A DNA stretch of 64,000 nucleotides from Burkholderiales bacterium (GCA_014860445.1 JACZJT010000018.1:13295-77294), one strand, 5' to 3'; shown: positions 1 to 28,972, counted from the first letter of the stretch. A program made the numbers and translations. Notes: generated by a model not told the origin, from the sequence alone.

Positions 1-658
1 ACATCGTGGCCCAGTCGGCGGCGTCGACCACGCCCTTGTCCAGCGCCGAATACACCTCTCCGCCCGGAATCACCACGACGGACGCCCCCATCTTGGTAAG
101 GATTTCGGCGTTCAGGCCTTGCGCTGAGCGGATCTTGATGCCTTTGAAGTCCGCCATGCTATTTATCGGCTTTTTCGACACGATCGACTCCACTCCCCAC
201 CAGGAGACGCCGACGCAATATGCGTTATAACGGGCGTAGGCTTCGCGCAGCAGGTCCAGCCCACCCTTGTAATGGAACCAGGCGTCCGCCTGCCATGGGT
301 GCTGGTAGGCGAACGCCAAATCGCCGATCACCGCGAATCCGGGGTCCTTGCCGGTGAAATAGACCGGCGCCGTCGACTGCGCCTGCAGCACGCCGGCCTG
401 CACCGCGTCCAGCGTCTCGAATGCGCCCACGACCGCACCAGAGGCAAACGGCTGTATCTCCAGCCGCCCGTTGGTGAGCTTGCCGATGCGGGTACAGAAA
501 TCCTGGAATACCTTGTAGGTGAGCTCGGCCGAGCTCCACATCGATTGCGCTTTCCATTTGATCGTTTGTTGCGACTTGACGATTGCCGGGAAACCCAAGG
601 TGGCGGCACCGACTGTGGCTGCCGCGCCGGTCAGAAATTTTCGACGCTGTACGCTCAT
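1..658 (-). CDS. TRAP transporter solute-binding protein, DctP family (N-terminal part only; gene runs off the window start)
   Basis: Absent from the ORF track because no stop lies inside the window. Reverse translation from the ATG at 656-658 gives MSVQRRKFLTGAAATVGAATLGFPAIVKSQQTIKWKAQSMWSS..GRLEIQPFASGAVVG... This is a twin-arginine signal followed by sequence colinear with the TRAP receptor at 12801-13862. Confidence 0.8.
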   Translation of the reverse strand, partial: MSVQRRKFLTGAAATVGAATLGFPAIVKSQQTIKWKAQSMWSSAELTYKVFQDFCTRIGKLTNGRLEIQPFASGAVVGAFETLDAVQAGVLQAQSTAPVYFTGKDPGFAVIGDLAFAYQHPWQADAWFHYKGGLDLLREAYARYNAYCVGVSWWGVESIVSKKPINSMADFKGIKIRSAQGLNAEILTKMGASVVVIPGGEVYSALDKGVVDAADWATM

Positions 659-749
659 AATCCCTTCTCCCTTAGTGGTTGCTACGTTATAGCGTAGTCA
701 CTGCTGCAGGACAGTAAGATGTTGACAGCGCCCCGCCGCGCACCTACGA

Positions 750-759
750 TGATATATCA
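750..759. promoter_or_regulatory. Palindromic candidate operator TGATATATCA (site 1) in the divergent promoter region
   Basis: Perfect 10-bp palindrome inside the near-palindrome ACGATGATATATCAGTCGT (746-764). It lies 78 nt upstream of the PhyH ATG (837) and 92 nt upstream of the divergent TRAP receptor ATG (658). The same core recurs at 13950, 16956 and 20287-20305. Confidence 0.5.
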
Positions 760-836
760 GTCGTATTCGCGCAACATATCACTAGAGTTTCTTGAAAGCA
801 AGCCGGCGTGAAGCAGCCGGCCATAAGGAGGAAGCG

Positions 837-1670
837 ATGCCAATATTGCTCTCGGACGAAGCGGTGCAGCAGTATCACCGCGACGGTTATTGTTTTCCCG
901 TGCCGGTGCTCAGCCGGGACGAAGCGGCGCATTACCGCCACAGCCTGGAGCAGCACGAAGCCAAGACCGGCACCCCGCTGCAAGGCAATTGGCGCCACAA
1001 AACGCACCTGCTCTTTACCTGGGCCGACGAACTCGCACATCATCCGAAAATTCTGGACGCGGTCGAGGACGCAATCGGCCCCGACATCCTGTGCTGGACC
1101 ACCAACTTTTTCATCAAGGAAGCAAGCAATCCGGGGTTTGTTTCCTGGCACCAGGACTCGACCTACTGGGGACTGGACCCGGACGACGTCATCACCGCCT
1201 GGGTCGCGTTCACCGATGTCACCCCCGAGAACGGCTGCATGCAGGTGATTCCCGGCAGCCACAAAGTCAATCAGCTGCCGCACACGGACACCTTCCATAA
1301 GGACAATCTGCTGTCGCGCGGTCAGGAGATCGCTGTGGACGTCGACAAGTCCAAGGCCGTCAGCATGGTGCTGAAGGCGGGAGAAATGTCGCTGCACCAT
1401 ATCAAACTCGTGCACGGATCCGACCCCAATCGCAGCAAGGATCGGCGCATCGGTCTTGCGATCAGATATATCCCCACTCATGTGCGCCAGACCAAGGTGC
1501 GCGATTCGGCCATGCTGGTGCGCGGCACCGACAAATACCACAACTTCGACTACGAGCCGCGCCCGCAAGCGGACCTGGACGAAGCCGCACTACGCGCCCA
1601 TGCCGACGCGGTTGAGCGGCAGGTGAAAGCGCTGTACCAAGGCACAAGCAAGCAGGAATTCCGTGCCTGA
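837..1670 (+). CDS. Phytanoyl-CoA dioxygenase (PhyH) family Fe(II)/2-oxoglutarate oxygenase, paralogue 1
   Basis: ORF 792-1670 trimmed to the ATG at 837, which is preceded by AAGGAGGAAGCG. PhyH-like sequence with an HxD (WHQDSTYW) and a distal His (LHHIKLVHGS) forming a facial triad. Confidence 0.88.
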   Translation: MPILLSDEAVQQYHRDGYCFPVPVLSRDEAAHYRHSLEQHEAKTGTPLQGNWRHKTHLLFTWADELAHHPKILDAVEDAIGPDILCWTTNFFIKEASNPGFVSWHQDSTYWGLDPDDVITAWVAFTDVTPENGCMQVIPGSHKVNQLPHTDTFHKDNLLSRGQEIAVDVDKSKAVSMVLKAGEMSLHHIKLVHGSDPNRSKDRRIGLAIRYIPTHVRQTKVRDSAMLVRGTDKYHNFDYEPRPQADLDEAALRAHADAVERQVKALYQGTSKQEFRA

Positions 1671-1696
1671 GCGCACAAGGTAACAAAGGAGTGAAG

Positions 1697-2560
1697 ATGG
1701 CTGAAGAACGCAAGAAACTGACTGTTCCGGATCTCAAAGAGGCGAAGAAATCAGGACGCAAGCTCGCGATGGCTTCGATTCCAGACTATCCATCCGCAGT
1801 ATGGGCCGAGCGCGCCGGGCTGGATATTCTGGGTGTCGGCGACAGCCTGGGTATGGTGAGCTACGGATTTTCCAATACCCTGCCGGTAACCGTGGACATG
1901 ATGATCCAGCACTGTCAGGCGGTACGCCGGGGCGCACCGAACACTTTTAACCTGGTTGCCATGCCCTACGGCAGTTATCCCAACCCGGACATTGCGGTGA
2001 TGAACGCGCTGCGTTTCATGAAGGAAGGCGGCGTCGACTGCGTGAAAATACAAGGCGGACGCGATAAGTTTCCCATCCTGAAAGCCTTGGTCGACTCGGG
2101 CGTGCCGATGATGAGCCACGTCGGCATGTGCCCTCATTTCGTGCACCAGTACGGCGGCTTCAAGCTGCAGGGCAAGACCGCGGATGAAGCGCTGAAAATC
2201 ATCGACGACGCGATCGCCATCCAGGAAGCAGGCTGCATCGGCTTTGAAATCGAAGCGGTGCCTGCGCCGGTAGCGCAGGCGGTGGACGCGGCGGTGGACA
2301 TATTCACTTTCGGCATCGGTGCGGGCAGCGCCAGCTGCGGCCAGCTGCTGCTTGCTTTCGATCTGCTCGGCGTGTTCGATCAGTTCAAACCGAAATTCAC
2401 CAAGCGCTATGCCAACATCTCGCAGATCGCGGTGGATGCGCTGAAGACCTATGCCGCCGAGGTGCGCAGCGGCCAGTTTCCCGACGCCGATCACAGCTAC
2501 GCGATGAAGCCCGAAGAACTCGCGCGACTGGAGCAGGCCATCGGCAGGAAACTGCAATAA
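1697..2560 (+). CDS. 3-methyl-2-oxobutanoate hydroxymethyltransferase (PanB/ketopantoate hydroxymethyltransferase) family protein, paralogue 1
   Basis: ATG at 1697 after AAAGGAG. Sequence ..DYPSAVWAERAGLDILGVGDSLGMVSYGFSNTLPVTVDMMIQHCQAVRRGAP..MPYGSY.. is colinear with PanB-family proteins. It is a paralogue of 19256-20137. Confidence 0.85.
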   Translation: MAEERKKLTVPDLKEAKKSGRKLAMASIPDYPSAVWAERAGLDILGVGDSLGMVSYGFSNTLPVTVDMMIQHCQAVRRGAPNTFNLVAMPYGSYPNPDIAVMNALRFMKEGGVDCVKIQGGRDKFPILKALVDSGVPMMSHVGMCPHFVHQYGGFKLQGKTADEALKIIDDAIAIQEAGCIGFEIEAVPAPVAQAVDAAVDIFTFGIGAGSASCGQLLLAFDLLGVFDQFKPKFTKRYANISQIAVDALKTYAAEVRSGQFPDADHSYAMKPEELARLEQAIGRKLQ

Positions 2561-2606: not shown

Positions 2607-3917
2607 TCAGCCGTAATAGCGTTTGGCGCGCTTTTCGGCTTCGGCCGCCGCCTCTTTCGCGCTCTTCTGTCCCAGACAGGCGGATGCAAACATGTCGACT
2701 ACGATCCAGTCGGCCATGCAGGCTGCAGATGCATAGCCCAGGCTGCCGGCATAGCTATGCGGCTGCATACGCTCGACCACGCCCTTGAACGGCAGATATT
2801 TCGGGTCATCGTTCCAGAACTTGTTGTTGTCATAGGCCTTGAGCGGGTGGCTGACATAGCCGAGAGACGCGGCCTGCCAGGGCTCGTATTGTTCGCGTTC
2901 CCACATGAAGCGCAGGTACTCCTTGGCCGCATTCGGATACTTGCTGTACTTGAACACCATCGCCTGCGAGAGCAAGTGCAGTTCGGTCGGCCGGCCCACC
3001 GGTCCCACCATCATCGGCGCGTGGTTCGTGTCAGCGGCAACCGCCTTTTTGGCTGCATCAGTGGAATTCTTCCCCGCGTAATAGATCGAAATTCCATTCG
3101 AGGTCAGGCTGATCTTGCCTTCAAGGAAGGCGTTGTTGTTGGATACCCCGCTCCACCCCCCCGTGCCCTCGATGAAGGTCTTGGACAACTCTTGCAGGTA
3201 CTCGATGGCCTTGATGGTTTCCGGGCTGTTGATCGCGACCTGATTCTTATCGTCCACCATCTTGCCGCCGAATCCCCAGAGTATGTTGTGCATCCAGGTT
3301 TCCGAGTCGCCGGTCGCGTGCGACAAGGCGAAACCCGGGGGGTGGCCGTTCTTTTTCAGTGCTTGGCAGAGCTTGAGGTAATCATCGAAGTTGGTCGGAA
3401 ATTTGCTGAACCCGGCCTCTTTCACCCAGGACTCGCGATAAGTGAGCAGTGCGCCGGACGCGCCCAGCGGCAGGCCGATCCAGCGGCCTTTCTTGGTCGT
3501 ACCATAGGTGCGCGCCGTGGGAAACCAGCCGCCGTATTTCTTGCCCAGGTAATCGGCGAGGTCGGTCAGGTCGACCAGTTTTTCCGGGTAAAGATGGGGA
3601 TCGTCGAGCCAGCCAACAATGACGTCGGGGCCCGCGCCGACGTTTGCGGCCACCGCCGCTTTCGGCCGCACGTCTTCCCAGTTCTCGTTGTCCGTGCGCA
3701 CGGGAATGCCGTATTTTTCACTGAACTTCTTCGTATTGGCCAGCCACATGTCTTCGTCAGGCTGCACAAATCGCTTCCAGCGCAGCACGCGCAGCTTGGC
3801 GCCCTTCTCCGGTTTGAAGCTGGTCTGCGCCTGCGCGCTCTTGATCCAGAACATCGGTCCCATTGTGGCCAATGCACTCATGCCACCGACGATTCTCCGC
3901 CTGGTCTGATTTGTCAT
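2607..3917 (-). CDS. ABC transporter substrate-binding protein (extracellular solute-binding family 1, sugar/polyol type)
   Basis: 436-aa ORF with AAGGAG upstream. N-terminal signal MTNQTRRRIVGGMSALATMGPMFWIKSAQA. Co-located with MalF/MalG-type permeases and a MalK-type ATPase. Confidence 0.88.
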   Translation of the reverse strand: MTNQTRRRIVGGMSALATMGPMFWIKSAQAQTSFKPEKGAKLRVLRWKRFVQPDEDMWLANTKKFSEKYGIPVRTDNENWEDVRPKAAVAANVGAGPDVIVGWLDDPHLYPEKLVDLTDLADYLGKKYGGWFPTARTYGTTKKGRWIGLPLGASGALLTYRESWVKEAGFSKFPTNFDDYLKLCQALKKNGHPPGFALSHATGDSETWMHNILWGFGGKMVDDKNQVAINSPETIKAIEYLQELSKTFIEGTGGWSGVSNNNAFLEGKISLTSNGISIYYAGKNSTDAAKKAVAADTNHAPMMVGPVGRPTELHLLSQAMVFKYSKYPNAAKEYLRFMWEREQYEPWQAASLGYVSHPLKAYDNNKFWNDDPKYLPFKGVVERMQPHSYAGSLGYASAACMADWIVVDMFASACLGQKSAKEAAAEAEKRAKRYYG

Positions 3918-3944
3918 TCCAATCTCCTTTGGTTGAAAAGCAGT

Positions 3945-4823
3945 CTATTTGGCGACTTTGCTCACTTCAAAAAACCGCTTCGCCGAAGCGGTTTGGTTCT
4001 CGTAAATCGACCCCGGATTCAGCGCCGGCGGCAGGGGCATGCGCACCGGGCAATCGACCATGCGCGGAACGATGCTCTCCTTGCCGCACAGCAGACGTCC
4101 TTTGAATTCATCGTAATCGGGAATCCCCATCAGCGGAAACGCGTCAGCCGCTGACGCTTCATACAACAACAGTCCTCGCGACCGGTCCGAGGTGTTCTGC
4201 GCCGACCCATGCACGACGCGCACATGGTGAAATGAGCAGGATCCGGCCGACCCCACGCAAGGGACCGCGTCCGCGAAGCGCAGGCCGGCGGCCTCGAAGT
4301 CCATGGCGCCGCAAAAGCGCCCATCGTCGCCATGATGGTCGTAGGTGGGCCCTTTGTGCGTTCCGGGAAGGATGTACAGCGCTCCGTTTTCGACCGTCGT
4401 ATCGTCGAGCATGACGCCGACGGCAAGCAGGTCGTCGTTGGTGTGCGGGTAAAACGCCCAGTCCTGATGCCATTCCACCGGAGAGCCGAAATGGGGCGCT
4501 TTCAGGTTGAGCTTGGAGCCGTGCAGGCGCACGCCGTCACCAAGCAGATCCCGAAGAATTCCGATCAGTTTGGGCGAACGCAGGAAATCGGCGAAAACCG
4601 GATTGACCAGATGCGGCGTCTTGATGCGGCGCACGCGCGGTTCCTCGCTGCTGTGCCCTGGCTCCAGATCGTATACCTTGTCATGGGTCCGGACGGCGCG
4701 CGAGCGCTCCACCAGGTCCGCAAGCACCTTTTTCATTTGTGCCCGCACCGCTTCGTCGAGCACGCTTTCTACAACGATTGCACCCACTTCCTTGTATTCA
4801 TCGATTTGTTTCTTCGACAGCAT
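3945..4823 (-). CDS. PhyH family Fe(II)/2-oxoglutarate oxygenase, paralogue 2
   Basis: ORF 3945-4841 begins at a TTG; I place the start at the ATG at 4821-4823 (MLSKKQIDEYKE..). HxD motif VEWHQDWAFY and distal His FHHVRVVHGS. The gene is embedded between ABC transporter genes. Confidence 0.85.
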   Translation of the reverse strand: MLSKKQIDEYKEVGAIVVESVLDEAVRAQMKKVLADLVERSRAVRTHDKVYDLEPGHSSEEPRVRRIKTPHLVNPVFADFLRSPKLIGILRDLLGDGVRLHGSKLNLKAPHFGSPVEWHQDWAFYPHTNDDLLAVGVMLDDTTVENGALYILPGTHKGPTYDHHGDDGRFCGAMDFEAAGLRFADAVPCVGSAGSCSFHHVRVVHGSAQNTSDRSRGLLLYEASAADAFPLMGIPDYDEFKGRLLCGKESIVPRMVDCPVRMPLPPALNPGSIYENQTASAKRFFEVSKVAK

Positions 4824-4888
4824 GATTTTCAACACCTCCAATAACGGCGACTACGGGACAACACGCAAACGCAGGAGCGAATTCCTGC

Positions 4889-5791
4889 TTACTCCTTCAC
4901 CGCGCCGGTCATGCCGGCAACGTAGTATTCAACGAAAAACGAGTACAGCAGCGCGACCGGGAGCGACCCAAAGAGCGCGCCCGCCATGAGCGAGCCCCAG
5001 TGATAGACGTCGCCGTCCACAAGCTCGGTGAGGACTCCGACGGGAACCGTCTTGTTTTCCGACGATGAAATGAAGGTCAGCGCATAGATGAATTCATTCC
5101 ACGACAGGGTGAAGGCAAAAATACCCGCAGAGATCAGCCCGGGAACCGCCAGCGGCAGCACGATTTTCCACAGAATCTGCACGCGCGTCGCACCGTCGAT
5201 CAGGGCGCACTCCTCCAGTTCGAAGGGGATGGATTTGAAATATCCCATCAACAACCAGGTACAGAACGGGATCAGGAATGTGGGGTAAGTGAGAATCAGC
5301 GCCCAGCGCGAGTCGAACAGCCCCAGTTTGTACACCATGGTCGCCAGGGGAATGAAAAGGATCGAAGGCGGCACAAGATAGGCGCCGTAGATGCTCAATC
5401 CTATCCAGCGGCTGCCTTTGAAGCGCAGGCGCTCGATCGCGTACGCGGCGAGCACGCTGGCAAAAAGCGAGATGGCCGTGGCGACCACGGACACCAGAAA
5501 AGTGTTCCACAACCAATCCGGATAGGAAGTCTCGAACAGCAGCTTCTTGATATTGTGCAGCGTGGGATTGAACACCCAGAACGGGCTGTTCTTTTCGTAG
5601 TTGTAGATATCGTCGTTGCTCTTGAAGGTTGTGATGGTCATCCAATAGAACGGGAACAGCAGGATGAAGGTGAACACTGCGAGCGGCAGGTAGACGGTCA
5701 CGAATTTGCGTTGCCGCGTCAGAAGGAAATCCATGCCTCCCTCTGAATACACTTTTTCCTCGACACTCTGGACGACGGGTTTCTTGCTCAT
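4889..5791 (-). CDS. ABC transporter permease (MalG/UgpE-like)
   Basis: 300-aa polytopic membrane protein with a typical carbohydrate-uptake permease sequence (..ALIDGATRVQILWKIVLPLAVPGL..). Confidence 0.9.
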   Translation of the reverse strand: MSKKPVVQSVEEKVYSEGGMDFLLTRQRKFVTVYLPLAVFTFILLFPFYWMTITTFKSNDDIYNYEKNSPFWVFNPTLHNIKKLLFETSYPDWLWNTFLVSVVATAISLFASVLAAYAIERLRFKGSRWIGLSIYGAYLVPPSILFIPLATMVYKLGLFDSRWALILTYPTFLIPFCTWLLMGYFKSIPFELEECALIDGATRVQILWKIVLPLAVPGLISAGIFAFTLSWNEFIYALTFISSSENKTVPVGVLTELVDGDVYHWGSLMAGALFGSLPVALLYSFFVEYYVAGMTGAVKE

Positions 5792-5795
5792 GGGC

Positions 5796-6719
5796 TCAGT
5801 CCTTGCTTCCCTGCTGCCAGGCGCGACGCTGCAGCCCGAAAAAGCTGATCAGAATGGCGGCGATCAAAAACGGCACCATCGCCATCGCGATTGCGGCGCC
5901 CTCTGCGAGCTGTCCGCCCGGTATGGCGCGCTGGAACGACAGCGTCGCCATCAGGTGCGTGGCGTTCACCGGACCACCGCGCGTGATTACATAGATGAGC
6001 TGGAAATCGGTAAACGTGAACAGCACCGAGAACGTCATCACGATCGCGATGATCGGGGTAAGCAGTGGATAAGTGATAAACCGGAAACGCTGCCATGGCG
6101 TCGCGCCGTCTATAGTCGCGGCTTCATATAGTGAGGGCGAAATCGTCTGCAGGCCGGCAAGCAGGGAGATCGCGACGAAGGGTATGCCGCGCCAGATGTT
6201 CGCGACCACGACCGAAATGCGCGCATTCCAGCGGTCACCGAGAAAGTCGATATAGTGGTCGATCAACCCGGCCTTGACCAGCACCCAGGAGATGATGGAA
6301 AACTGGCTGTCGTACATCCACCAGAACGCGATCGCGGATAACGTCGTAGGCACGATCCATGGAAGCAGAATGATCGCGCGCATGAAGGACTTCAGCGCAA
6401 TGTTCTGGTTGAGCAGCAGCGCAAGAATCAATCCCAGGACAAACTTGAAGACGCTTGCAACGGCTGTGTAGCCGATGGTGTTGAATACCGACAACCAGAA
6501 GACGCTGTCGTTGAACAGCGATCGGTAGTTTTCAAGACCAATGAATACGCCGGGACGCCCGATCTTGGTATCGGTAAGCCCGAGCCACAGACCCAGGCCG
6601 AGCGGATAAGTCAGAAATACAAGCAGAATCGCCGCGGCCGGCAACATGAAAACGAGCCCCAGCGCGTTGGCGCTGTTGTTGAAGCGGTCTAGCAGACTTT
6701 GGCTGGAGGATTTGGCCAA
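5796..6719 (-). CDS. ABC transporter permease (MalF/UgpA-like)
   Basis: 307-aa membrane protein carrying the EAA-loop-like segment ..YEAATIDGATPWQRFRFITYPLL... There is a 4-nt gap to the next permease gene. Confidence 0.9.
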   Translation of the reverse strand: MAKSSSQSLLDRFNNSANALGLVFMLPAAAILLVFLTYPLGLGLWLGLTDTKIGRPGVFIGLENYRSLFNDSVFWLSVFNTIGYTAVASVFKFVLGLILALLLNQNIALKSFMRAIILLPWIVPTTLSAIAFWWMYDSQFSIISWVLVKAGLIDHYIDFLGDRWNARISVVVANIWRGIPFVAISLLAGLQTISPSLYEAATIDGATPWQRFRFITYPLLTPIIAIVMTFSVLFTFTDFQLIYVITRGGPVNATHLMATLSFQRAIPGGQLAEGAAIAMAMVPFLIAAILISFFGLQRRAWQQGSKD

Positions 6720-6769
6720 GATTTACCCCGGGCGCGGCGCCTACACGCTGCCGCAGGAATCGCGGCAAC

Positions 6770-7846
<1,077 letters not shown>

Positions 7847-7873
7847 GCGAGTCCCCTAATACAGCTTGCGGCT

Positions 7874-9811: not shown

Positions 9812-9843
9812 CTGTGTTTTCTCCTAAGTTTGGTGCACCGGGG

Positions 9844-12782: not shown

Positions 12783-12800
12783 CGATGAGGCACAAGCCGG

Positions 12801-20303: not shown

Positions 20304-20353
20304 TATGTGCTTGTCCAAAGATTCAGACGGGCGAAAACCAGGGAGACACGACG

Positions 20354-20989: not shown

Positions 20990-21012
20990 GCAACCAGAAA
21001 GGAGATACGCAA

Positions 21013-22089: not shown

Positions 22090-22096
22090 GGCCACC

Positions 22097-22894
22097 ATGC
22101 TAATTGTTGCTGAACGCGTCAACGCCTCTCGCAAGGCGATCCGTGCTGCGCTGGAAACACTCGACGCCGCCGCGATCGCAAACGAGGTGCGCATCCAGGC
22201 CGCTGCCGGTGCGCACTACATCGACGTGAACGGCGGCACTTTCCCCGGCCGCGAAGCCGAACTGCTTTGCTGGCTGGTGGACATCGCGCAAGCGGAAACG
22301 CAACTGCCGCTGTGTCTCGACAGCCCGGACCCCCAGGCGCTGGTCGCCGCGCTGCCGCGCATCAAGGGCGAGCGGCCGATGATCAATTCGATCAACCTGG
22401 AACCCGAGCGCTTCGAAAAAATCCTTCCGCTTGCCCGCCAATACAATGCAAAACTCATTGCGCTGGCTCAGGGAGAGGGCGTGCCCGCCTCCACCACCGT
22501 GGAAAAAGTCGAGCTCGCCACGCGCCTGGTCGAGCAGTTGCTCAAGGGCGGCATGGTGCTTGACGACATTTACGTCGATCCGCTGGTATTTCCGGTGGGC
22601 ACCGACTCCACTTCGGCCCTTGCCACGGTGACGGCCATGCGCGAAATCATGGCGCGATTTCCCGGCGTGCACACGATCTGCGGGCTGACCAATGTTTCCC
22701 ACGGCCTGCCGGCGCGCAAACTCATCAACCGCAGCTTCCTCGCCGGCGCGATCGCCAATGGAATGGACGCGGCCATTATCGATCCCACCGATCCCCTGCT
22801 GATGGCCACGCTGCTGGGCGCGGAGGCGGTTTTCGGCCGTGACGAATACTGCATGAATTTGATCGAAGCGTTCCAGGACGGCAAGCTCGCCTGA
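22097..22894 (+). CDS. Pterin-binding methyltransferase (methyltetrahydrofolate:corrinoid methyltransferase; MetH-Fol/AcsE/MtrH/CmuB-like)
   Basis: 265 aa. Sequence MLIVAERVNASRK.., ..YIDVNGG.., ..LCLDSPD.., ..MINSINLE.., ..ICGLTNVSHGLPARKLINRSFLAGAIANGMDAAIIDP.. matches pterin-binding TIM-barrel motifs. Confidence 0.85.
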   Translation: MLIVAERVNASRKAIRAALETLDAAAIANEVRIQAAAGAHYIDVNGGTFPGREAELLCWLVDIAQAETQLPLCLDSPDPQALVAALPRIKGERPMINSINLEPERFEKILPLARQYNAKLIALAQGEGVPASTTVEKVELATRLVEQLLKGGMVLDDIYVDPLVFPVGTDSTSALATVTAMREIMARFPGVHTICGLTNVSHGLPARKLINRSFLAGAIANGMDAAIIDPTDPLLMATLLGAEAVFGRDEYCMNLIEAFQDGKLA

Positions 22895-22931
22895 GCCGGC
22901 CGGCTCGCGCTGAGCTCACCCGTCTACAGCC

Positions 22932-24827
22932 ATGACGAAGCCTGAGCCCAAGGCCGGCGGAATCGGCGTCTCCTTTCTGCCCGATTCGCGCCAGACACAG
23001 GTGGCCGAAGGCGACCATCTTTTGCTGGCCGCATTGAAAGCCGGCGTAGGCATCAAGTCGGTGTGCGGCGGGCGCGGCAAATGCGGTTCCTGCCTGGTAG
23101 AGCTTGAACCGGCGGACGCAGCGGCGCTCTCCCCCGCCGGCGACGAAGAAATCGCGCTGCTGCCCCCCGCGCGCGAGGGAAAATATTATCGCCTGGCCTG
23201 CATGGCCAAAGTGCGCGGCGCGCTGCGCGTGGCCATCCCGCCCGAGAGCCAGGCGCTGAAAAGCCCGCCGCGCAAGCCCTACACCGTGACCCGCATCGCA
23301 CTCGCGCCTGCGGTGAAACGCGTGGCGCTGGATGTCGAAGGGGCCTACGTCGAGCCGCTGCGGCCGCTTGCCACGCGCATCACCGCTGCGCTCGCGCGCG
23401 CCGGGCAAGGCAAGGTCGAACTGCCGCTCGCTGCGCTCGCCGAATTTTCCCACGAGCCTGATTTCGATTCGAGCAAGGACGTCAGCGCCACGATTCAGAA
23501 CCGGCGGGTGCTGCAACTCAGCCGCGGCAAGCCGCGGACGCTGTACGGCCTCGCGCTGGACATCGGCACCACCTCGATCGTTGTATTCCTGTGCAATCTC
23601 GAGCGCGGCGACATCGCCGCCGTGCGCACGGCAAGCAACCCGCAGGCCGCCTACGGCGAGGACGTGATATCGCGCATGACGCATATCTACAGCGACGTGG
23701 CGATGCTCGCCACGCTGCAAAAGCTGCTGGTCGACGAAATCAACCGCATGGTCGCGGATGCGGCGCAGGAAGCGGGCGTTGCACTGGCGGACATCGCCGA
23801 TGCAGTGGTGGTGGGCAACCCGACCATGCAGCATATCCTGCTCGGCATTAATCCAGCGCCGCTGGGCCGTGGCCCCTATCTGCCTGTGCTGTGCGATGGC
23901 GTGGAGGTGGAAGCAGCGAGCATGGGACTGGCAATGATGCCGCGGGCACCGGTGTTCGTGCTTCCCATGCCTGCCGGATACATCGGCGGCGATACGGTTT
24001 CGGCAGTCCTCACGCGTGGGCCGGAGTTCTATCGCGGCAACAACCTGCTGGTGGATATCGGCACCAACGGCGAAGTGGTGCTGGCAAAGGACGGGGTCCT
24101 GACGGCGACCTCCTGCGCCACCGGGCCGGTGTACGAGGGCGCGCACATCGCCTGCGGCGTGCGCGCGGCCCCGGGCGCGATCGAGCGGGTCTGGGTCGAA
24201 GACGGCCGCAATCTGCGCTGGGCGGCGATACCGCCGGACGGCGAGCGCGACAAGCGTCCGGTGGGCCTGTGCGGCTCGGGGGTCATTTCCACCGTCACCG
24301 CACTAGCCGGCGCCGGCCTGATCGGCAGCGACGGCGCCTTCGCCGCCGCCGGATCGCATCCGCGCATTCGCGCATCGGCGAAAACGCGCCAGCTCGAAGC
24401 ACTACTGGTGCCGGGAATGGGCAGCCGCACCGGACGCGACATCGTGTTCACCCAGCAGGACGTGCGCGCGGTGCAGCTGGGCAAGGCCGCCCTGCGCGCC
24501 GGCATCGAGATACTCCTGCGCGAAGAAGGCGTGACGCAACTCGATCACATCTATCTTGCCGGCACCTTCGGCAATCATCTCGAACCGCGCGACATCGTCG
24601 CCATCGGCCTGGTGCCGCCGCTGCCGGTCGAGCGCATCGAATCCATAGGCAATGCCGCCGGCGATGGTGCGCGCATGGCGCTGTTCAACCGACGCGAGCG
24701 GCGCCGCGCGCACAAACTGGCGCACTCCATGCGGGTGGTGGAGCTGTCGAACCGTGCCGATTTCCAGGACATGTTCGTCGCGGCCACAGAACTGTCCGAC
24801 GCAACCATCGACCTCGAGGGAGCATAG
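22932..24827 (+). CDS. Corrinoid reductive activator (RACE-type): N-terminal plant-type 2Fe-2S ferredoxin domain plus ASKHA ATPase domain
   Basis: 631 aa. The ferredoxin part is ..SVCGGRGKCGSCLVEL..YRLACMAKV... The large C-terminal ASKHA-like part includes ..YGLALDIGTTSIV.. and ..LLVDIGTNGEVVL... Confidence 0.82.
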   Translation: MTKPEPKAGGIGVSFLPDSRQTQVAEGDHLLLAALKAGVGIKSVCGGRGKCGSCLVELEPADAAALSPAGDEEIALLPPAREGKYYRLACMAKVRGALRVAIPPESQALKSPPRKPYTVTRIALAPAVKRVALDVEGAYVEPLRPLATRITAALARAGQGKVELPLAALAEFSHEPDFDSSKDVSATIQNRRVLQLSRGKPRTLYGLALDIGTTSIVVFLCNLERGDIAAVRTASNPQAAYGEDVISRMTHIYSDVAMLATLQKLLVDEINRMVADAAQEAGVALADIADAVVVGNPTMQHILLGINPAPLGRGPYLPVLCDGVEVEAASMGLAMMPRAPVFVLPMPAGYIGGDTVSAVLTRGPEFYRGNNLLVDIGTNGEVVLAKDGVLTATSCATGPVYEGAHIACGVRAAPGAIERVWVEDGRNLRWAAIPPDGERDKRPVGLCGSGVISTVTALAGAGLIGSDGAFAAAGSHPRIRASAKTRQLEALLVPGMGSRTGRDIVFTQQDVRAVQLGKAALRAGIEILLREEGVTQLDHIYLAGTFGNHLEPRDIVAIGLVPPLPVERIESIGNAAGDGARMALFNRRERRRAHKLAHSMRVVELSNRADFQDMFVAATELSDATIDLEGA

Positions 24828-24830
24828 AAC

Positions 24831-26264
24831 ATGCTGGCATTGCGGCGCTGGTCGGTACGGCACTCGGGAACGCTGGAGTATTTCTACAAGCGCTTCAGTT
24901 CGTTCATGGCCTATTGCGCACCCGCATTTCGCAAACTGGGTTTCGCCCGCGTCGAACGCGTCGTGATCCCGTTCGAGCGCAGCGTAAAGCGCCTGATGTT
25001 CGATTGCCACATGTGCGGTGTGTGCCTGCTATCCAAGAACGGCATGTCCTGCCCGATGAATTGCCCCAAGTCCGTGCGCAATGGGCCCTGCGGCGGCGTG
25101 CGCGAAGACGGCAGCTGCGAGGTCGATCCGGAAATGCAATGTGTCTGGGTCGAAGGCTGGCTGGGCACGCAGGGCATGAGCGAGGGCGCCTTGTCGCCGC
25201 TGCCCAATGCGCCTGCGAATGCGCGCTTCGCCGGCAGTTCGAGCTGGATGCGCCTCGCGCGCGGCGAGCATGGGCCGGCGCCGCTGTCCGGGGCGCCGAC
25301 GACGGCGACCGACAGTGGTTTTGAGCGCCTCCTCGAGAGCGGGGGCTTCGCCGTTACCGCCGAATTTTCCCCGCCGGATTCGGCCGACCCGGCGGAGGTA
25401 TTCGCCCACCTGGATCACTTCCGCGGCAACGTGGACGCGATCAACGTCACCGACGGCAGCGGCGCCAATTGCCACATGTCCAGCCTCGGCGTATCCGCGC
25501 TGTTGATGCAGGCGGGCTTCGAGCCGGTGATGCAGATTACCTGCCGCGACCGAAACCGCATCGCCATCCAGGGAGACATACTCGGCGCGGCGGCTCTGGG
25601 TATACGCAATCTGCTTTGCCTCACCGGCGACAGCACGCTGGTGGGCGATCATCCCGATGCCAAGCCGGTGTGCGATCTGGACAGCATGTCACTGCTGCAG
25701 ACGGCGCGCGTCATGCGCGACGAAAGCCGCTTTCTTTCCGGCAGAAAACTGAACTCGGTGCCGCGGCTGTTCCTTGGCGGGGCCGACAATCCGTTTGCGC
25801 CGCCCCACGGCATGCGACCGATGCGGCTTGCACGCAAGATTGCAGCCGGTGCGCAGTTCATCCAGACGCAATACTGCTTCGACCTGGCGCTGCTTGAGTC
25901 CTATATGCGGCGGGTGCGCGACGAAGGCCTGCACGAGCGCTGCCATATCATCATCGGCGTCGGCCCCATCGGCTCGGCGAAAACCGCCCGCTGGCTGCGC
26001 AGCAAGGTGCCGGGGGTTCATATTCCCGACGACGTCATCAGGCGGCTGGAACATGCGGCCGATCCGCGCTTGGAGGGCCGCAATATCTGCATCGAGATGA
26101 TCCAGGCGATACGCGCGATACCGGGCATCGCCGGCGTGCATATCATGGCCACGCGCCAGGAACACCAGATTCCCGATATCGTGCGCGAGTCGGGCGTGCG
26201 CGAAGGGCGCAAACTTGCGCAACCCGCGGCGGACGCAGATCGCGCCACTGCACCAATACACTGA
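24831..26264 (+). CDS. Methylenetetrahydrofolate reductase with N-terminal MetV-like (MTHFR_C) Cys-rich zinc-ribbon domain (MetV-MetF fusion)
   Basis: 477 aa; the ATG lies 3 nt after the activator stop. The N-terminus has FDCHMCGVCLLSKNGMSCPMNCPKSVRNGPCGG. The MTHFR TIM barrel begins about aa 165 (..GGFAVTAEFSPP.., ..DAINVTDGSGA.., ..MQITCRDRNRIAIQGD.., ..NLLCLTGD..). Confidence 0.85.
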   Translation: MLALRRWSVRHSGTLEYFYKRFSSFMAYCAPAFRKLGFARVERVVIPFERSVKRLMFDCHMCGVCLLSKNGMSCPMNCPKSVRNGPCGGVREDGSCEVDPEMQCVWVEGWLGTQGMSEGALSPLPNAPANARFAGSSSWMRLARGEHGPAPLSGAPTTATDSGFERLLESGGFAVTAEFSPPDSADPAEVFAHLDHFRGNVDAINVTDGSGANCHMSSLGVSALLMQAGFEPVMQITCRDRNRIAIQGDILGAAALGIRNLLCLTGDSTLVGDHPDAKPVCDLDSMSLLQTARVMRDESRFLSGRKLNSVPRLFLGGADNPFAPPHGMRPMRLARKIAAGAQFIQTQYCFDLALLESYMRRVRDEGLHERCHIIIGVGPIGSAKTARWLRSKVPGVHIPDDVIRRLEHAADPRLEGRNICIEMIQAIRAIPGIAGVHIMATRQEHQIPDIVRESGVREGRKLAQPAADADRATAPIH

Positions 26265-26273
26265 ACGCCGGCC

Positions 26274-27002
26274 ATGGCCAACCAACCCACCGTAATCATC
26301 GCCTGCCGCGTGATGCAGGAACATCTGCAGAAGCTGCTGCCGTCGGACTCTCCGGTGACCTACATGGACATCACCCTGCACAACACGCCCAAGAAGCTCG
26401 CCGCGGCGCTGCAGGCGGAGATCGACGCGATCGCGCAACCGAGCACCATCATCGTCGGCTACGGCCTGTGCGGCAACGGGCTGCTGGGCGTAAAGTCCGG
26501 CCCGCATACGCTGGTCATCCCGCGCACACACGACTGCGTCGCCATCTTCCTCGGTTCGCACCAACGCTACGTCCAGCGCTTTTTCGCCAATCCGAACACC
26601 TATTACCTGACCCGCGGCTGGCTGGACGCAAAAGACGAACCGCTGCAGGACTATCTGGATTACGTGCGCGACTACGACGAGGAGACGGCGGACTATTTGG
26701 TGGAAATGAAATACCGGCACTATCGAAAGCTCACCATGGTCGGTTTCTCGCAGCAGGAACTGGACGAGTGCCGGCCGATGGCGATGCGCGTGGCCGAGTT
26801 CTGCGCCAAGCGCTGGAATATGGAATACGAAGAAATCGTCGGCTCCACCGTACTTCTGGAAGCGCTGCTGAAGATGCCGGACCAACTCGATTCGAGCAAT
26901 GCCGAATTCGTGGTGCTGAAACCGGGTGAAGAGATCCAGGTAGAGATGTTCCTGCAGGAAGGCGATCCCGTTCCTGTGCAGACCCCGGGCAGGGACAATT
27001 AG
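26274..27002 (+). CDS. DUF1638 domain protein
   Basis: 242 aa. Sequence MANQPTVIIACRVMQEHLQKLLP...GYGLCGNGL..PRTHDCVAIFLGS.. is the DUF1638 pattern. This family is typically encoded next to corrinoid methyltransferase genes. Confidence 0.7.
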   Translation: MANQPTVIIACRVMQEHLQKLLPSDSPVTYMDITLHNTPKKLAAALQAEIDAIAQPSTIIVGYGLCGNGLLGVKSGPHTLVIPRTHDCVAIFLGSHQRYVQRFFANPNTYYLTRGWLDAKDEPLQDYLDYVRDYDEETADYLVEMKYRHYRKLTMVGFSQQELDECRPMAMRVAEFCAKRWNMEYEEIVGSTVLLEALLKMPDQLDSSNAEFVVLKPGEEIQVEMFLQEGDPVPVQTPGRDN

Positions 27003-27017: not shown

Positions 27018-27344
27018 CTATACCACCGCATCGACCTCGCGCGCGGCCCGGATTATTCGCATGATCTCGACACAATTGCCGCGGGTGCGATAGTAGATCA
27101 CATAGCGCTGAAACAGCAAACTGCGGATTCCATCCTGCAATTCTTGGCGCGGCGGGCCCATTTCCGGATGCAGGGTCAGCATTTGACACACCTGCTCGAA
27201 CTGATCGACGAAATTGCCGGCCGCAATCAGATGCTCTGTATTCGTCGAGCCAAACCGGTCGTCTGGCATCGCGATCGTCTCCCAAATGCCATTGAGATCC
27301 GCGCAAGCTTGAAACGTGAATTGCAGTCTGCTCAATGCCGTCAT
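27018..27344 (-). CDS. parE: Type II toxin, ParE/RelE family
   Basis: 108 aa with ..FQACADLNGIWETI.. and ..YVIYYRTRGNCVEIMRIIRAAREV... It overlaps the upstream antitoxin gene by 4 nt. Confidence 0.8.
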   Translation of the reverse strand: MTALSRLQFTFQACADLNGIWETIAMPDDRFGSTNTEHLIAAGNFVDQFEQVCQMLTLHPEMGPPRQELQDGIRSLLFQRYVIYYRTRGNCVEIMRIIRAAREVDAVV

Positions 27345-27598
27345 TCGATGCGCTCGGCGGCTTTTCTGCGAAGGGTGCGAAAAACCTCCAAGGCGTCGAT
27401 CAACTGGCGGGTGTTCGCCTGGTCGATGCCGTTCGCAATTTCCTTCAACAGTCTGTTTGTCCGAAGTGCCCGCGTCTGATCGCGTTCTTCCAGCAGGATA
27501 AGCGCTTCCTGAATCACTTGGGCGTAAGACTCATACAGGCCGGATTCGAATTTCTCACGGACGATAGCGACAGCGTCGGGCGGCAACCAAATATTCAT
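27341..27598 (-). CDS. parD: Type II antitoxin, ParD family (ribbon-helix-helix)
   Basis: 85 aa. MNIWLPPDAVAIVREKFESGLYESYAQVIQEALILLEERD.. is ParD-like. It sits immediately upstream of and overlaps parE. Confidence 0.78.
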   Translation of the reverse strand: MNIWLPPDAVAIVREKFESGLYESYAQVIQEALILLEERDQTRALRTNRLLKEIANGIDQANTRQLIDALEVFRTLRRKAAERIE

Positions 27599-27600
27599 GG

Positions 27601-28584
27601 CTAATCGGATCTTGTATCAGGAACGGTGGTGATCTTTACCGGTCCGAGTATCTTCTGGATATCGTCGTAGCTCGGGGCAGGTTCCTTGGGTCGGCTCGCA
27701 AGCGCATCGCTCATGCTCCTGATGTGCTGCGCCGTGGTACCGCAGCAGCCACCGATGATTCTCGCGCCGGCGTCGCGGGCCATGCATGCGTAGATGCCCA
27801 TGATTTCGGGATTGCCGTTGTAGCTGACGCGCATTTCGCTATCGAGCACCGGAATGCCGCAGTTGCTCTTGGCAACGACGATGGCATCGCTTTCCGCACC
27901 GCGGACCAGGCCGATGACCGAATCCATGAGCTGCGCCGGGCCGACGCCGCAATTGGCGCCGAAGGCGATGGGCTTGAACGCCGAATTCCTGATGCGGCGC
28001 ATTGCGCCCTCTGGGGTTTCGCCCATCATGGTGCGCCCACCGCTATCGAATGTCATGGTTGCAACGTACGCAAGGCCCGCGCGGTGCACACCCCGGATCG
28101 CGGCGTCCAATTCGTTGTCCGCTATCATGGTTTCGATCCAGGCGATGTCGACACCGCCTTCCTTCAAGGCCTGCGCCTGCTCGAAAAACGCGTCCTCCGC
28201 CTCTACGACGGTGCGCGTGCCGAACGGTTCCAGGATGTCGCCGATCGGCCCCATGTCGCCGGCGATGACGATGGGCCGTCCCGCTTTGTCGGCGACCGCT
28301 CGCGCAATCTTTGCCGCGGCCACGTTGAACTCGCGCGCGCGCTCGGCCAATTTGTGCAATCCGAGGCGATAGCGATTCGCGCCAAAGGTGTTGGTTAGCA
28401 GTATATCGGAGCCGGCATCGACGAAACCCCTGTGCACATTCGCAACCAGGTCCGGATACTCGACATTCCAGAGTTCGCCGGAGGACCGATTGTCCATTCC
28501 AAGCTGCATAAGGCTGGTCCCCATTGCGCCATCCGCAAGCACCACATCCTTCTGCTCAAGCAGACGGGAGAGCACGTTACTCAT
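27601..28584 (-). CDS. Homocysteine S-methyltransferase domain protein (stand-alone MetH-Hcy/BHMT-like module)
   Basis: 327 aa with ..VLADGAMGTSL.., ..DILLTNTFGAN.., ..FGANCGVGP.. and ..IIGGCCGTT.. (the Zn-Cys motifs of the Hcy-binding barrel). Confidence 0.85.
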   Translation of the reverse strand: MSNVLSRLLEQKDVVLADGAMGTSLMQLGMDNRSSGELWNVEYPDLVANVHRGFVDAGSDILLTNTFGANRYRLGLHKLAERAREFNVAAAKIARAVADKAGRPIVIAGDMGPIGDILEPFGTRTVVEAEDAFFEQAQALKEGGVDIAWIETMIADNELDAAIRGVHRAGLAYVATMTFDSGGRTMMGETPEGAMRRIRNSAFKPIAFGANCGVGPAQLMDSVIGLVRGAESDAIVVAKSNCGIPVLDSEMRVSYNGNPEIMGIYACMARDAGARIIGGCCGTTAQHIRSMSDALASRPKEPAPSYDDIQKILGPVKITTVPDTRSD

Positions 28585-28702
28585 TGCCGGTTCCTAGGTG
28601 AAAATGCATCGAGTAACATTATGCCTTTTTTTGGCAATAGCGTGGATTCAGTGACCGGTTTTTGGCCGCGAACGCCGAAGCGTCCATTGACGGAACAGCG
28701 TT

Positions 28703-28972
28703 CTACTCTTTCTTCGCGAGAAATACGACAGCGCCCTGCGACCCGGCGCGCTCCGCATGCATGACATTTGCGGCAAGGTTGCAACACTCGCCGGTCTGAA
28801 ATACATCCTTTCGGTCTTCAAATTGCAGAGCAAATTCTCCTTCAGTAACCAGCAGCGTTACTGCGAAGTTATGTGTGTGCAATGGGCCGTCAAGATCAGA
28901 GGCGTAGTGTTTGGTTTGAAAATCGGCGAATCCGTTCGCAATCGCCTGTGCACGAAATTCTGACTCAGTCAT
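28703..28972 (-). CDS. Small cupin domain protein
   Basis: 89 aa. ..GPLHTHNFAVTLLVTEGEFAL..FQTGECCNLAANVMHAERAG.. shows the two cupin motifs. Confidence 0.65.
   Translation of the reverse strand: MTESEFRAQAIANGFADFQTKHYASDLDGPLHTHNFAVTLLVTEGEFALQFEDRKDVFQTGECCNLAANVMHAERAGSQGAVVFLAKKE

Follow-up and report, generated by a model that had tools for sequence, protein, structure and literature searches.

The window analyzed here, 64 kb of Burkholderiales DNA (GCA_014860445.1, JACZJT010000018.1:13295-77294), carries at its left end a cluster of about 29 kb in which corrinoid-dependent methyltransferases stand among O2-dependent hydroxylases, paralogs of PanB, and uptake systems. The cluster is probably a single catabolic regulon of aerobic or micro-aerobic Burkholderiales, controlled by a GntR-family regulator, that passes the methyl groups of imported small carboxylic acids to the tetrahydrofolate (THF) pool and to methionine. 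Its components are (i) a plus-strand operon, the hub, encoding a corrinoid protein, a stand-alone methyltransferase of the URO-D family, a pterin-binding methyltransferase, a reductive activase, a MetV-MetF fusion (MetVF), and a DUF1638 protein; (ii) two paralogous proteins of about 640 aa, 53% identical to each other, that join a URO-D-type domain to a B12-binding domain (fusions 1 and 2); and (iii) three PhyH-family hydroxylases (PhyH_a, PhyH_b, and PhyH_c), a membrane di-iron hydroxylase, an FAD-dependent oxidoreductase, two PanB paralogs, a GntR/FCD regulator, and transporters (Table 1). The co-location of these genes is not due to chance, because their order is conserved and an operator motif is common to their promoters.

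Third-position GC content (0.73-0.83 in the chosen frames) picked one frame per gene unambiguously. Together with Pfam and NCBIfam matches it bore out every gene named, with good coordinates, in an earlier note on this DNA. The domain calls agree with that note in placing a substrate methyltransferase (MT1), a corrinoid protein, a methyltransferase to THF (MT2), and an activase beside O2-dependent oxygenases; the three PhyH proteins with intact triads, the di-iron hydroxylase, the FAD oxidoreductase, both PanB paralogs, the GntR/FCD regulator, and the ATP-binding cassette (ABC) importer were likewise found as described. In map order, the minus-strand block spans 2607-20137, and the plus strand carries the PhyH_a/PanB_a pair and the hub operon from 20354 to 27002.

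The genomic context was derived from a tblastn synteny table, gene calls on long contigs, and mapped hits. The window is 85-88% identical to metagenome-assembled genomes (MAGs) of Lac Pavin and Powell Lake (loci L001 and L002), and more than 20 MAG loci keep the gene order. The recurring core order in Burkholderiales is PanB, GntR, fusion, FA_hydroxylase, DctPQM, (FAD oxidoreductase), corrinoid protein, URO-D, MetVF, pterin methyltransferase, activase, and DUF1638; the order from PanB through the activase is kept in more than 15 Burkholderiales MAG loci and in one Hyphomicrobiaceae MAG. The hub gene set is likewise present in L006, L015, L081, and L085. In the species-representative genome set, full-length relatives of the fusions belong mostly to lake, soil, and groundwater Burkholderiales, with one from Hyphomicrobiaceae and many from Desulfobacterota; no full-length homolog was found on PLSDB plasmids or chromids. 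In a neighbor-joining tree they form three clades: the fusion-1 clade, which always adjoins a PhyH_b-like gene and an importer; a second clade linked to hydroxylase, PanB, and a tripartite ATP-independent periplasmic (TRAP) transporter; and a third, of the Desulfobacterota type, that includes fusion 2.

The Desulfobacterota loci have the order TRAP, GntR, URO-D, corrinoid protein, URO-D, pterin methyltransferase, fusion, DUF1638, LarA, and activase, with neither oxygenases nor PanB. A LarA-type gene (Lar_N/LarA_C) lies 3' of the fusion (L084 13254-21455; L082 12635-13957), and further genes follow in L084, namely a GCV_T-SHMT fusion of 887 aa and a complete set of glycine-cleavage genes. This arrangement hints at glycine, serine, or a 2-hydroxy acid as a product in the anaerobic version. 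A 430-aa neighbor of the fusion in a Desulfobacterota locus, which has no Pfam match, proved not to be a stand-alone copy of the fusion N-terminal domain. A compact Burkholderiales version (L081 20142-21326; L085 20260-21429) has an Amidohydro_1-family gene between the pterin methyltransferase and the activase, and the ferredoxin domain of the L081 activase is a separate 100-aa protein; the window has neither this Amidohydro_1 gene at the hub nor the split activase.

The intergenic regions of the cluster share a perfect 10-bp palindrome, TGATATATCA. Three exact and two one-mismatch copies (positions in Table 1), against 0.52 expected, are the only sites in the 64 kb, and all of them lie at cluster promoters. 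Of four sigma-70-like sites found in the first 20 kb, three, each with a 17-nt spacer, have an exact copy just downstream, a placement that would be expected of a repressor operator. No Rfam element, the cobalamin riboswitch included, was found within the cluster. In L001 and L002 the palindrome occupies the same positions upstream of PhyH_a and of DctP, and L002 has three sites. In an alphaproteobacterial MAG (L014), sites precede DctP, PhyH_c, and the corrinoid protein gene, the last being an exact copy. With at most one mismatch and at most 200 bp of upstream distance, the motif precedes the hydroxylase gene in 12 loci, PanB in three, and the fusion gene in L014 and L015; in 1.54 Mb of locus sequence, 23 of 41 palindrome sites lie upstream of cluster genes. 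This common operator and promoter architecture, recurring in other genomes, upholds the functional link between the gene groups that the earlier note had assumed.

The cluster's GntR/FCD protein is predicted to bind TGATATATCA; in support, cultured Methylobacterium nodulans pairs a 57%-identical GntR (WP_012631248) with an exact copy. On plasmid pMNOD02 of M. nodulans ORS 2060, this GntR gene adjoins genes for a major facilitator superfamily (MFS) transporter, a hydroxylase (52.5%), and PanB (80%); the exact palindrome lies upstream of the hydroxylase gene, and an FAD oxidoreductase gene (63%) lies 10 kb off. No corrinoid, URO-D, pterin methyltransferase, or activase gene was found within 20 kb on either side of this module. 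In Cupriavidus campinensis MJ1, a GntR (63%) occurs with an α/β-hydrolase, an Fe-alcohol dehydrogenase, an MFS transporter, and a hydroxylase (66%); PanB and nearby corrinoid genes are absent. Since the module occurs without nearby corrinoid genes in M. nodulans, and in part in Cupriavidus, the oxygenase and PanB genes form a separable GntR regulon, into which the corrinoid machinery has been wired in the MAG lineages. The earlier note had assigned them to one demethylation pathway: their tie to the cluster through the operator stands, and their separability makes a single pathway less certain. The operator, the cultured M. nodulans module, and the Cupriavidus GntR-hydroxylase pair together offer an experimental route to the inducer, and hence to the substrate.

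The hub operon and the homocysteine (Hcy) methyltransferase gene convergent to it correspond, as judged by their domains and motifs, component by component to a split-MetH or MtgCDE hub. Such a core hub is already known from genetic work described in 2018 and 2025. The split methionine synthase of Phaeobacter inhibens comprises an Hcy methyltransferase, a pterin methyltransferase, a B12 protein, a RamA-like DUF4445 activase, and DUF1638 (Price 2018, PMC5764234). In Ruegeria pomeroyi, MtgC and MtgD are needed both to make methionine and to demethylate glycine betaine (Mausz 2025, PMC12478193). The same study found MetF2, encoded beside mtgD, to be the most strongly induced protein, reinterpreted the "BHMT" homolog as MtgE, showed that the hub runs in both directions through a bidirectional pterin methyltransferase, and reported that about 70% of the MtgBCD-carrying marine genomes miss MetH (PMC12478193). 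MetF2, RamA, and DUF1638 are induced on methylated substrates in the known hub (PMC5764234, PMC12478193). By analogy, the hub described here probably makes methionine too. The view expressed in the earlier note, that no characterized system has this gene combination, therefore does not hold for the hub; it stands for the whole cluster, on which our literature searches found no paper.

The cofactor sites of the hub proteins are intact. The corrinoid protein has DFHDIG at residue 126 and SALI, so that the DxHxxG...SAL(L/I) signature is complete in all three B12 domains of the cluster; the MetV part of MetVF holds eight Cys, the activase ferredoxin domain four, and the zinc site of the Hcy methyltransferase (Cys212, Cys280, and Cys281) is present. 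The pterin methyltransferase, activase, MetVF, and DUF1638 genes each occur only once in the window, as the proposal of a single MT2, activase, and MetF would have it. The stand-alone URO-D methyltransferase has the motif FHSDGN; among solved structures CdmB (9rui) comes closest, at E 1.5e-7 and 34 bits over no more than the C-terminal 136 residues, and the MtaA/CmuA model TIGR01463 scores 52.8 bits against a cutoff of 235.4. Because the hub is a split methionine synthase or MtgCDE system, the Hcy methyltransferase, which the earlier note had grouped with the oxygenases and importers, belongs with the hub, of which it is probably the methionine-forming arm. It lies within 10 kb in six loci of the synteny table, and in L015 its gene is directly downstream of DUF1638, on the same strand and in the same operon. 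In the window, a ParE-family toxin gene (27018-27344, minus strand; Pfam ParE_toxin, 41 bits) and, upstream of it, a presumed 85-aa antitoxin gene without a Pfam match (pair within 27018-27598, minus strand) lie between the two; given their adjacency in L015, insertion of this pair may have parted the Hcy methyltransferase gene from the hub operon in the lineage of the window.

There is a modest chance that the hub is instead a housekeeping split methionine synthase, in which MetF-derived methyl-THF (CH3-THF) donates methyl groups that reach the Hcy methyltransferase by way of the pterin methyltransferase and the corrinoid protein, the URO-D enzymes supplying alternative donors and the oxygenase and transporter regulon being merely adjacent. 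Exactly this component set is essential for methionine in Phaeobacter and Ruegeria, MetH is missing from most of the MtgBCD-carrying marine genomes, and the Hcy methyltransferase passes the PRK07534 cutoff and joins the operon in L015; the hydroxylase/PanB regulon, moreover, stands without nearby corrinoid genes in M. nodulans and partly in Cupriavidus. However, both fusions sit inside transporter and hydroxylase operons, outside the hub operon, and the operator precedes the corrinoid operon as well, together with the fusion genes of L014 and L015. Three MT1 units and a MetV-type MetF also exceed the needs of a methionine synthase, and the coexistence of both functions in Ruegeria demonstrates that they are not exclusive.

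The hydroxylases and PanB paralogs form the second part of the proposed regulon. All three PhyH proteins retain the HxD...H facial triad and an invariant VHGS His. Halogenases carry HxA/G instead of HxD/E; the best NCBIfam match of PhyH_a is "chlorinating enzyme" and its JGI name is "halogenase," but the HxD is present and the halogenase assignment was rejected. The best PDB match of PhyH_a (6ZYK/6ZYL, 36-39% identity), as identified by Foldseek, is ThoJ, a histidine hydroxylase acting on a ribosomally synthesized and post-translationally modified peptide, and is uninformative on the substrate. The predicted model of PhyH_a is poor (predicted local distance difference test, pLDDT, 58); its start is most likely at 834, since homologs have 275-277 aa. 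PhyH_c orthologs were seen in L014 and in L015. The family of PhyH_a is both very large and highly conserved: all but two of 8000 scored candidates have E <= 1e-20, and identity is 79-88% among the 120 best relatives. PanB is not always beside it: on the 6.9-Mb contig of L087, for instance, its neighbors are a second PhyH, TctC binding proteins, and FAD monooxygenases.

The two PanB paralogs share 52% identity. A terminator-like hairpin (2562-2586) follows just past panB_a, and the panB-gntR pair is kept in L002, L006, L014, L081, and L085. The di-iron hydroxylase has the His boxes HKYVMH, HTRQHH, HYCCH, and HHTAHH together with hydrophobic segments. A hydroxylase is paired with PanB twice, in the two-gene operon of PhyH_a and PanB_a and in the association of FA_hydroxylase with PanB_b, the latter also in M. 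nodulans. These two independent pairings suggest, as a speculation, that a C-methyl group could be hydroxylated by a PhyH or di-iron enzyme and then released as methylene-THF (CH2-THF) by a retro-aldol reaction of PanB. A further step, and one unlikely to hold as a whole, would be a complete "methyl-stripping" pathway for small branched or methylated 2-oxo and 2-hydroxy acids, with two chemistries feeding one folate pool: heteroatom-bound methyls would yield CH3-THF via a new O2-tolerant clade of URO-D::corrinoid proteins, and carbon-bound methyls would yield CH2-THF via hydroxylation and PanB retro-aldol cleavage. The latter route, if true, would amount to oxidative C-demethylation, by which branched or quaternary carbons could be taken apart. 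The repeated hydroxylase-PanB pairing in itself hints at an undescribed catabolic role of PanB.

In the regulon as we read it, the fusions would be further MT1 enzymes. The AlphaFold2 model of fusion 1 (pLDDT 84.8) has a URO-D fold at residues ~1-400 and a B12 cap and Rossmann domain at ~430-645, joined by a disordered linker (residues 400-427, pLDDT below 50). By Foldseek, the N-terminal part matches URO-D (2eja, 1jph) and Methanosarcina mazei MtaA (4ay7/4ay8) with E of 1e-9 to 1e-8, and the C-terminal half matches the corrinoid modules of MetH, MttC, and MtaC with E of ~1e-16. The DxHxxG motif lies at residue 527 in fusion 1 and 526 in fusion 2, with SALL intact. Pfam itself is sub-threshold for URO-D in fusion 1 and silent in fusion 2, and a PDB sequence search with the N-terminal domain, alone or as a 20-sequence profile, gave no match. 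An exhaustive hidden Markov model search of 1.84 billion clusters with both N-terminal domains retrieved 202 representatives at E <= 1e-30 and 865 at <= 1e-10, many of them stand-alone proteins of ~395 aa; all 10 sampled relatives pass the Pfam URO-D cutoff, and many close fusion homologs carry a precomputed PF01208 match. The structural model, these relatives, and the precomputed matches together confirm the assignment of both proteins, made in the earlier note, as fusions of a URO-D fold to a B12-binding domain; the URO-D domain belongs to a divergent clade.

The alignment of the fusion N-terminal domains (homologs 35-88% identical) contains about 75 invariant columns, among them H287, D289, G290, E291, and N292 in a motif that reads CHTDGEN or VHCDGEN and has its counterpart in the FHSDGN of the stand-alone enzyme. 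Dehalococcoidia relatives (~33% identity), which are split across reading frames, were excluded from the alignments. The zinc motif of MtaA, MtbA, and CmuA is H-x-C-x(n)-C. Where MtaA and CmuA have H-x-C, the fusions have H-x-D, the equivalent position having been assigned by eye rather than by an alignment with MtaA, and the zinc-thiolate site of the MtaA/CmuA family seems to be absent from them. TIGR01463 does not match either fusion at E <= 0.01. A heme-pathway decarboxylase (HemE) was rejected as an identity: no HemE model is found among the NCBIfam matches of the URO-D-like proteins, the Pfam URO-D match spans the C-terminal half only, and two of the three URO-D proteins are fused to B12 domains, whose DxHxxG is intact; neither heme decarboxylases nor degenerate B12 domains, the outcomes that the earlier note had named as contrary to its view, were thus found. 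All three B12 domains of the cluster best match the NCBIfam model corrin_MtgC_2 (NF047996) at 206-214 bits, below its cutoff of 370. More than 1,200 homologs were found for each fusion, and their source labels read "methylmalonyl-CoA mutase cobalamin-binding domain," "glutamate mutase sigma subunit," or "corrinoid protein"; the family is currently mis-annotated and has no solved or curated relative.

The domain order of the fusions is that of CmuA, the closest solved relative of the stand-alone URO-D enzyme is the chloromethane enzyme CdmB (PMC13222342), and the CmuAB route, like the hub, ends in methyl-THF. We nevertheless regard it as quite improbable that the fusions are CmuA-like methyltransferases for methyl halides (CH3Cl or CH3Br), with transporters and oxygenases serving unrelated substrates. 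The TIGR01463 scores (no match for the fusions, 53 bits against 235 for the stand-alone enzyme) and the replacement of the zinc Cys motif by H-x-D argue against it, and the CdmB match amounts to 34 bits over the C-terminal third. Furthermore, the fusion clades are tightly tied to a particular transporter and hydroxylase, neither of which a diffusing gas would need.

Import of a carboxylic acid is suggested by the transporters. Two uptake systems, the ABC importer block and a TRAP transporter, lie inside the cluster; the third of the three counted in the earlier note is the TRAP binding protein gene cut by the left edge of the window, which is divergent from PhyH_a and in whose place L002 has a full DctPQM set. 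The edge DctP best matches the Thermus lactate-binding protein TTHA0766 in PDB (175 bits), and the internal DctP has its best PDB matches in TakP (2hzk/2hzl), the lactate-binding protein of Thermus, and a "ketoacid-binding protein"; the two TRAP binding proteins alike belong to the lactate/TakP α-keto-acid clade. Between dctP and dctQ (12760-12783, minus strand) stands a strong terminator-like hairpin with a T-run after it; this gap is the usual spot for an intra-operon attenuator that raises the binding protein over the membrane subunits. The ABC importer block is kept beside fusion-1 orthologs in L001, L002, L004, and L033. The clade of the binding proteins, with which the LarA-type 2-hydroxy-acid racemase homologs carried in place of oxygenases by the anaerobic relatives agree, points to small 2-hydroxy or 2-oxo monocarboxylates as the likely substrate class. 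Several candidates were rejected: neither 4-O-methylglucuronate and other O-methyl sugars or methoxylated aromatic acids, nor methylthio-2-oxo acids, sulfonium compounds, or pantoate fit all components, and the statement in the earlier note that the substrate cannot be named from sequence stands.

The same importers bear on which way methyl groups run. The pterin methyltransferase of Mtg works in both directions, the reactions of corrinoid methyltransferases can in principle be reversed, and PanB and the FA_hydroxylase family are usually regarded as biosynthetic, which would accommodate a flow from CH3-THF through the corrinoid domains to acceptors, with methylation of small molecules or lipids. 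We consider this direction very improbable, since three importers with periplasmic binding proteins, a repressor-type GntR/FCD regulator, and promoter-overlapping operators are hallmarks of inducible catabolism, and the cluster has no biosynthetic scaffold genes. Accidental co-location, with ordinary or degenerate heme decarboxylase domains, might have been read from the sub-threshold or absent Pfam URO-D match of the fusions, but it is refuted by synteny kept across two proteobacterial classes, the operator common to cluster promoters, the invariant N-terminal columns, the intact fused B12 domains, and the lack of a HemE match.

Our interpretation as a GntR-controlled catabolic regulon builds on the observed domain identities, intact cofactor motifs, conserved synteny, common operator, and match to a genetically characterized hub. 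From these we infer which way methyl groups flow, that all three MT1 units use one MT2 and one activase, and what the hydroxylases and PanB do. The three MT1 units (the stand-alone URO-D enzyme with the corrinoid protein, and the two fusions) would move the substrate methyl to cob(I)amide, the single pterin-binding methyltransferase would hand it to THF, and MetV-MetF would oxidize CH3-THF to CH2-THF, the RamA-like 2Fe-2S/ASKHA activase and DUF1638 repairing oxidized Co(II). The Hcy methyltransferase would make the corrinoid/pterin core double as a split methionine synthase, as in Mtg. The Fe(II)/2-oxoglutarate (Fe/2OG) and di-iron hydroxylases, each beside a transporter, fusion, or PanB, could perform O2-dependent steps on the same or related substrates, and the PanB paralogs could tie 2-oxo-acid intermediates to CH2-THF.

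Several observations weigh against this interpretation. The link of the hydroxylase and PanB genes to methyl transfer may be regulatory rather than that of one pathway, because their module stands without nearby corrinoid genes in M. nodulans and partly in Cupriavidus. The chemistry of the fusions could differ from that of known MT1 enzymes, because their URO-D domains have H-x-D in place of the HxCxnC zinc motif, and the stand-alone enzyme reaches only 34 bits with CdmB, its closest solved MT1. The full-length fusion homologs found in the species-representative genome set all come from MAGs. The ABC binding protein has weak MalE-type matches only and gives no clue to a ligand.

Table 1. Features of the cluster; positions are counted from the first nucleotide of the window.
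Feature	Position	Strand	Evidence or remark
TRAP binding protein gene (DctP), 5' part, cut by left edge	2-658	-	Pfam DctP 107 bits
Promoter-like site TTGACA-17-TACGAT, then TGATATATCA (750-759)	722-759	+	upstream of PhyH_a
PhyH_a, Fe(II)/2-oxoglutarate hydroxylase	834-1670	+	Pfam PhyH 129 bits; WHQD + distal His
PanB_a	1691-2560	+	Pfam 296 bits; TIGR00222 260 vs cutoff 207.6; co-transcribed with PhyH_a
CUT1-type ABC importer block with PhyH_b	2607-7846	-	Pfam matches
ABC binding protein	2607-3917	-	Pfam SBP_bac_1/8
PhyH_b, embedded in ABC importer block	3945-4841	-	Pfam PhyH; WHQD + distal His
ABC permeases	4889-5791, 5796-6719	-	Pfam BPD_transp_1 x2
MalK-type ATPase	6770-7846	-	Pfam ABC_tran + OB_MalK + TOBE_2
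Fusion 1	7874-9811	-	Pfam B12-binding 95 bits, B12-binding_2 54 bits, URO-D 20 bits (sub-threshold)
PhyH_c, adjoining fusion 1 on its upstream side	9844-10764	-	Pfam PhyH 88 bits; WHYD + distal His
TRAP transporter	10826-13892	-	DctM 10826-12250, DctQ 12145-12711, DctP 12801-13892; Pfam DctM, DctQ, DctP
Promoter-like site TTGAAA-17-TACGAT (14004-13976) and TGATATATCA (13950-13959)	13950-14004	-	upstream of DctP
Fusion 2	14068-15993	-	Pfam B12-binding 98 bits, B12-binding_2 62 bits; no Pfam URO-D match
Membrane di-iron hydroxylase (FA_hydroxylase / "sterol desaturase")	16134-16898	-	Pfam 33 bits vs cutoff 31; co-transcribed with fusion 2
Promoter-like site TTGAAA-17-TAATAT and TGATATATCA (16956-16965)	16956-17009	-	upstream of di-iron hydroxylase gene
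FAD-dependent oxidoreductase (PF12831)	17026-18405	-	Pfam 399 bits
GntR/FCD regulator	18564-19259	-	Pfam GntR + FCD; 4-bp overlap with panB_b
PanB_b	19256-20137	-	Pfam Pantoate_transf 317 bits; TIGR00222 286 vs cutoff 207.6
Divergent control region, two adjacent one-mismatch palindromes (20285-20294, 20296-20305)	20138-20353		~50 bp upstream of likely corrinoid-protein start
Hub operon	20354-27002	+	Pfam, NCBIfam, Cys motifs
Corrinoid protein	20354-20989 (start 20276 or 20354)	+	Pfam B12-binding_2 65 bits, B12-binding 92 bits
Stand-alone URO-D methyltransferase	21013-22089	+	Pfam URO-D 69 bits
Pterin-binding methyltransferase	22097-22894	+	PF00809 71 bits; PRK07535 (NF005719) 282 vs cutoff 259
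2Fe-2S + ASKHA reductive activase (RamA-like)	22932-24827	+	Fer2 + Raco_middle + RACo_C_ter
MetV-MetF fusion	24831-26264	+	MTHFR_C + MTHFR
DUF1638 protein	26274-27002	+	Pfam DUF1638 126 bits
Stand-alone Hcy S-methyltransferase (MtgE-like)	27601-28584	-	PF02574 S-methyl_trans 212 bits; PRK07534 398 vs cutoff 338

Beyond the Hcy methyltransferase gene, the region 28000-30000 has a GC content of 0.53 against ~0.60 elsewhere and no convincing long open reading frame (ORF) except a weak cupin of 89 aa (28703-28972) under the Pfam cutoff; the cluster may end here on its right-hand side, or the stretch may be left over from mobile DNA. A further, separate TRAP system, of the TAXI type, follows at 32070-35794 (minus strand), with a fused 899-aa DctM and DUF3394 membrane protein and an NMT1_3 binding protein, adjoined by a 1636-aa NAD-specific glutamate dehydrogenase (35921-40831); neither has a visible link to the cluster. 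A LigB-family extradiol ring-cleavage dioxygenase subunit is encoded beside an MR/MLE-family enzyme (54196-56139, minus strand), some 25 kb away from the cluster. It could be relevant if methoxylated aromatics served as methyl donors; housekeeping genes intervene between it and the cluster, and no operator motif is present there. Three tandem tRNA genes (58859-59156, minus strand) lie downstream of pnp (59908-62025) and truB (62498-63844), an ordinary context that indicates a chromosomal cluster rather than one on a small plasmid.

To our knowledge, corrinoid methyltransferase systems are regarded as a specialty of anaerobes, with the exception of MetH, Cmu, and, since 2025, MtgBCD. The features of the cluster that appear to be new are the presence of URO-D-type methyltransferases, two of which carry a corrinoid domain of their own, in place of the MttB-type MtgB; the TGATATATCA motif that marks the cluster promoters and recurs in other MAGs and in cultured M. 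nodulans; the hydroxylase and PanB pairs as a GntR regulon that also exists without nearby corrinoid genes; and the position of both TRAP binding proteins in the lactate/α-keto-acid clade. Through the cluster, the aerobic Mtg-type hub would gain a second class of substrate methyltransferase, of URO-D fold and partly corrinoid-fused, and would reach abundant uncultured freshwater and soil Burkholderiales. This would imply that methylated dissolved organic matter has an unrecognized B12-dependent sink and that those communities have an additional need for B12. Tests of the fusion family, the regulon, and the PanB coupling are possible in cultured relatives.

Among the known systems, the Mtg/split-MetH hub is similar in having a separate corrinoid protein, a pterin methyltransferase, and an Hcy methyltransferase of the PRK07534 "BHMT" type, together with a RamA-like Fer2 and DUF4445 activase, DUF1638, a MetF paralog near the pterin methyltransferase, and O2-respiring hosts. 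In contrast to Mtg, no MttB-superfamily (PF06253) MtgB was found in any scanned ORF of the 64-kb window, and URO-D enzymes take that role; two of the substrate methyltransferases are fused to their own corrinoid domain, the B12 domains score under the MtgC_2 cutoff, and MetF carries a fused MetV domain. The cluster is also wired to Fe/2OG and di-iron hydroxylases, PanB, and TRAP and ABC importers under a GntR operator, and contains no betaine transporter, dimethylglycine, or sarcosine genes. A plasmid of cultured Azoarcus sp. KH32C bears a similar annotated hub with betaine transport genes, its components being 34-58% identical to those of the window. The M. nodulans pMNOD02 module shares orthologous PanB, GntR, hydroxylase, and FAD oxidoreductase and the TGATATATCA site upstream of the hydroxylase; it has MFS and ABC transporters where the window has TRAP, and no corrinoid genes within the 20-kb flanks.

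The fusions resemble CmuA in joining an N-terminal URO-D-type methyltransferase to a C-terminal corrinoid domain, as the earlier note had remarked of the layout, and the cluster resembles CmuAB in its separate methylcobalamin:THF methyltransferase and aerobic host. A MetF paralog oxidizes CH3-THF in the CmuAB route and is required there. Unlike CmuA, the fusions fall outside the MtaA/CmuA model, have H-x-D for H-x-C, and retain the His of DxHxxG; unlike CmuAB, they are tied to importers, hydroxylases, and a reductive activase. Their architecture is thus analogous to that of CmuA, and membership in the CmuA family is not supported. The "mlp" clusters of Kountz and Balskus are a different, anoxic system. 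Finally, the anaerobic O-demethylase and Cdm systems likewise keep a URO-D MT1, a corrinoid protein, an MT2, and an activase together, as at 20354-24827; CdmB is the closest solved relative of the stand-alone methyltransferase, and the Desulfobacterota clusters have the anaerobic layout. The cluster differs from the systems of acetogens and Desulfitobacterium in that its host encodes O2-dependent enzymes, its MT1 enzymes include corrinoid fusions and have very low similarity to characterized ones, and it adds an Hcy methyltransferase, MetVF, and PanB.

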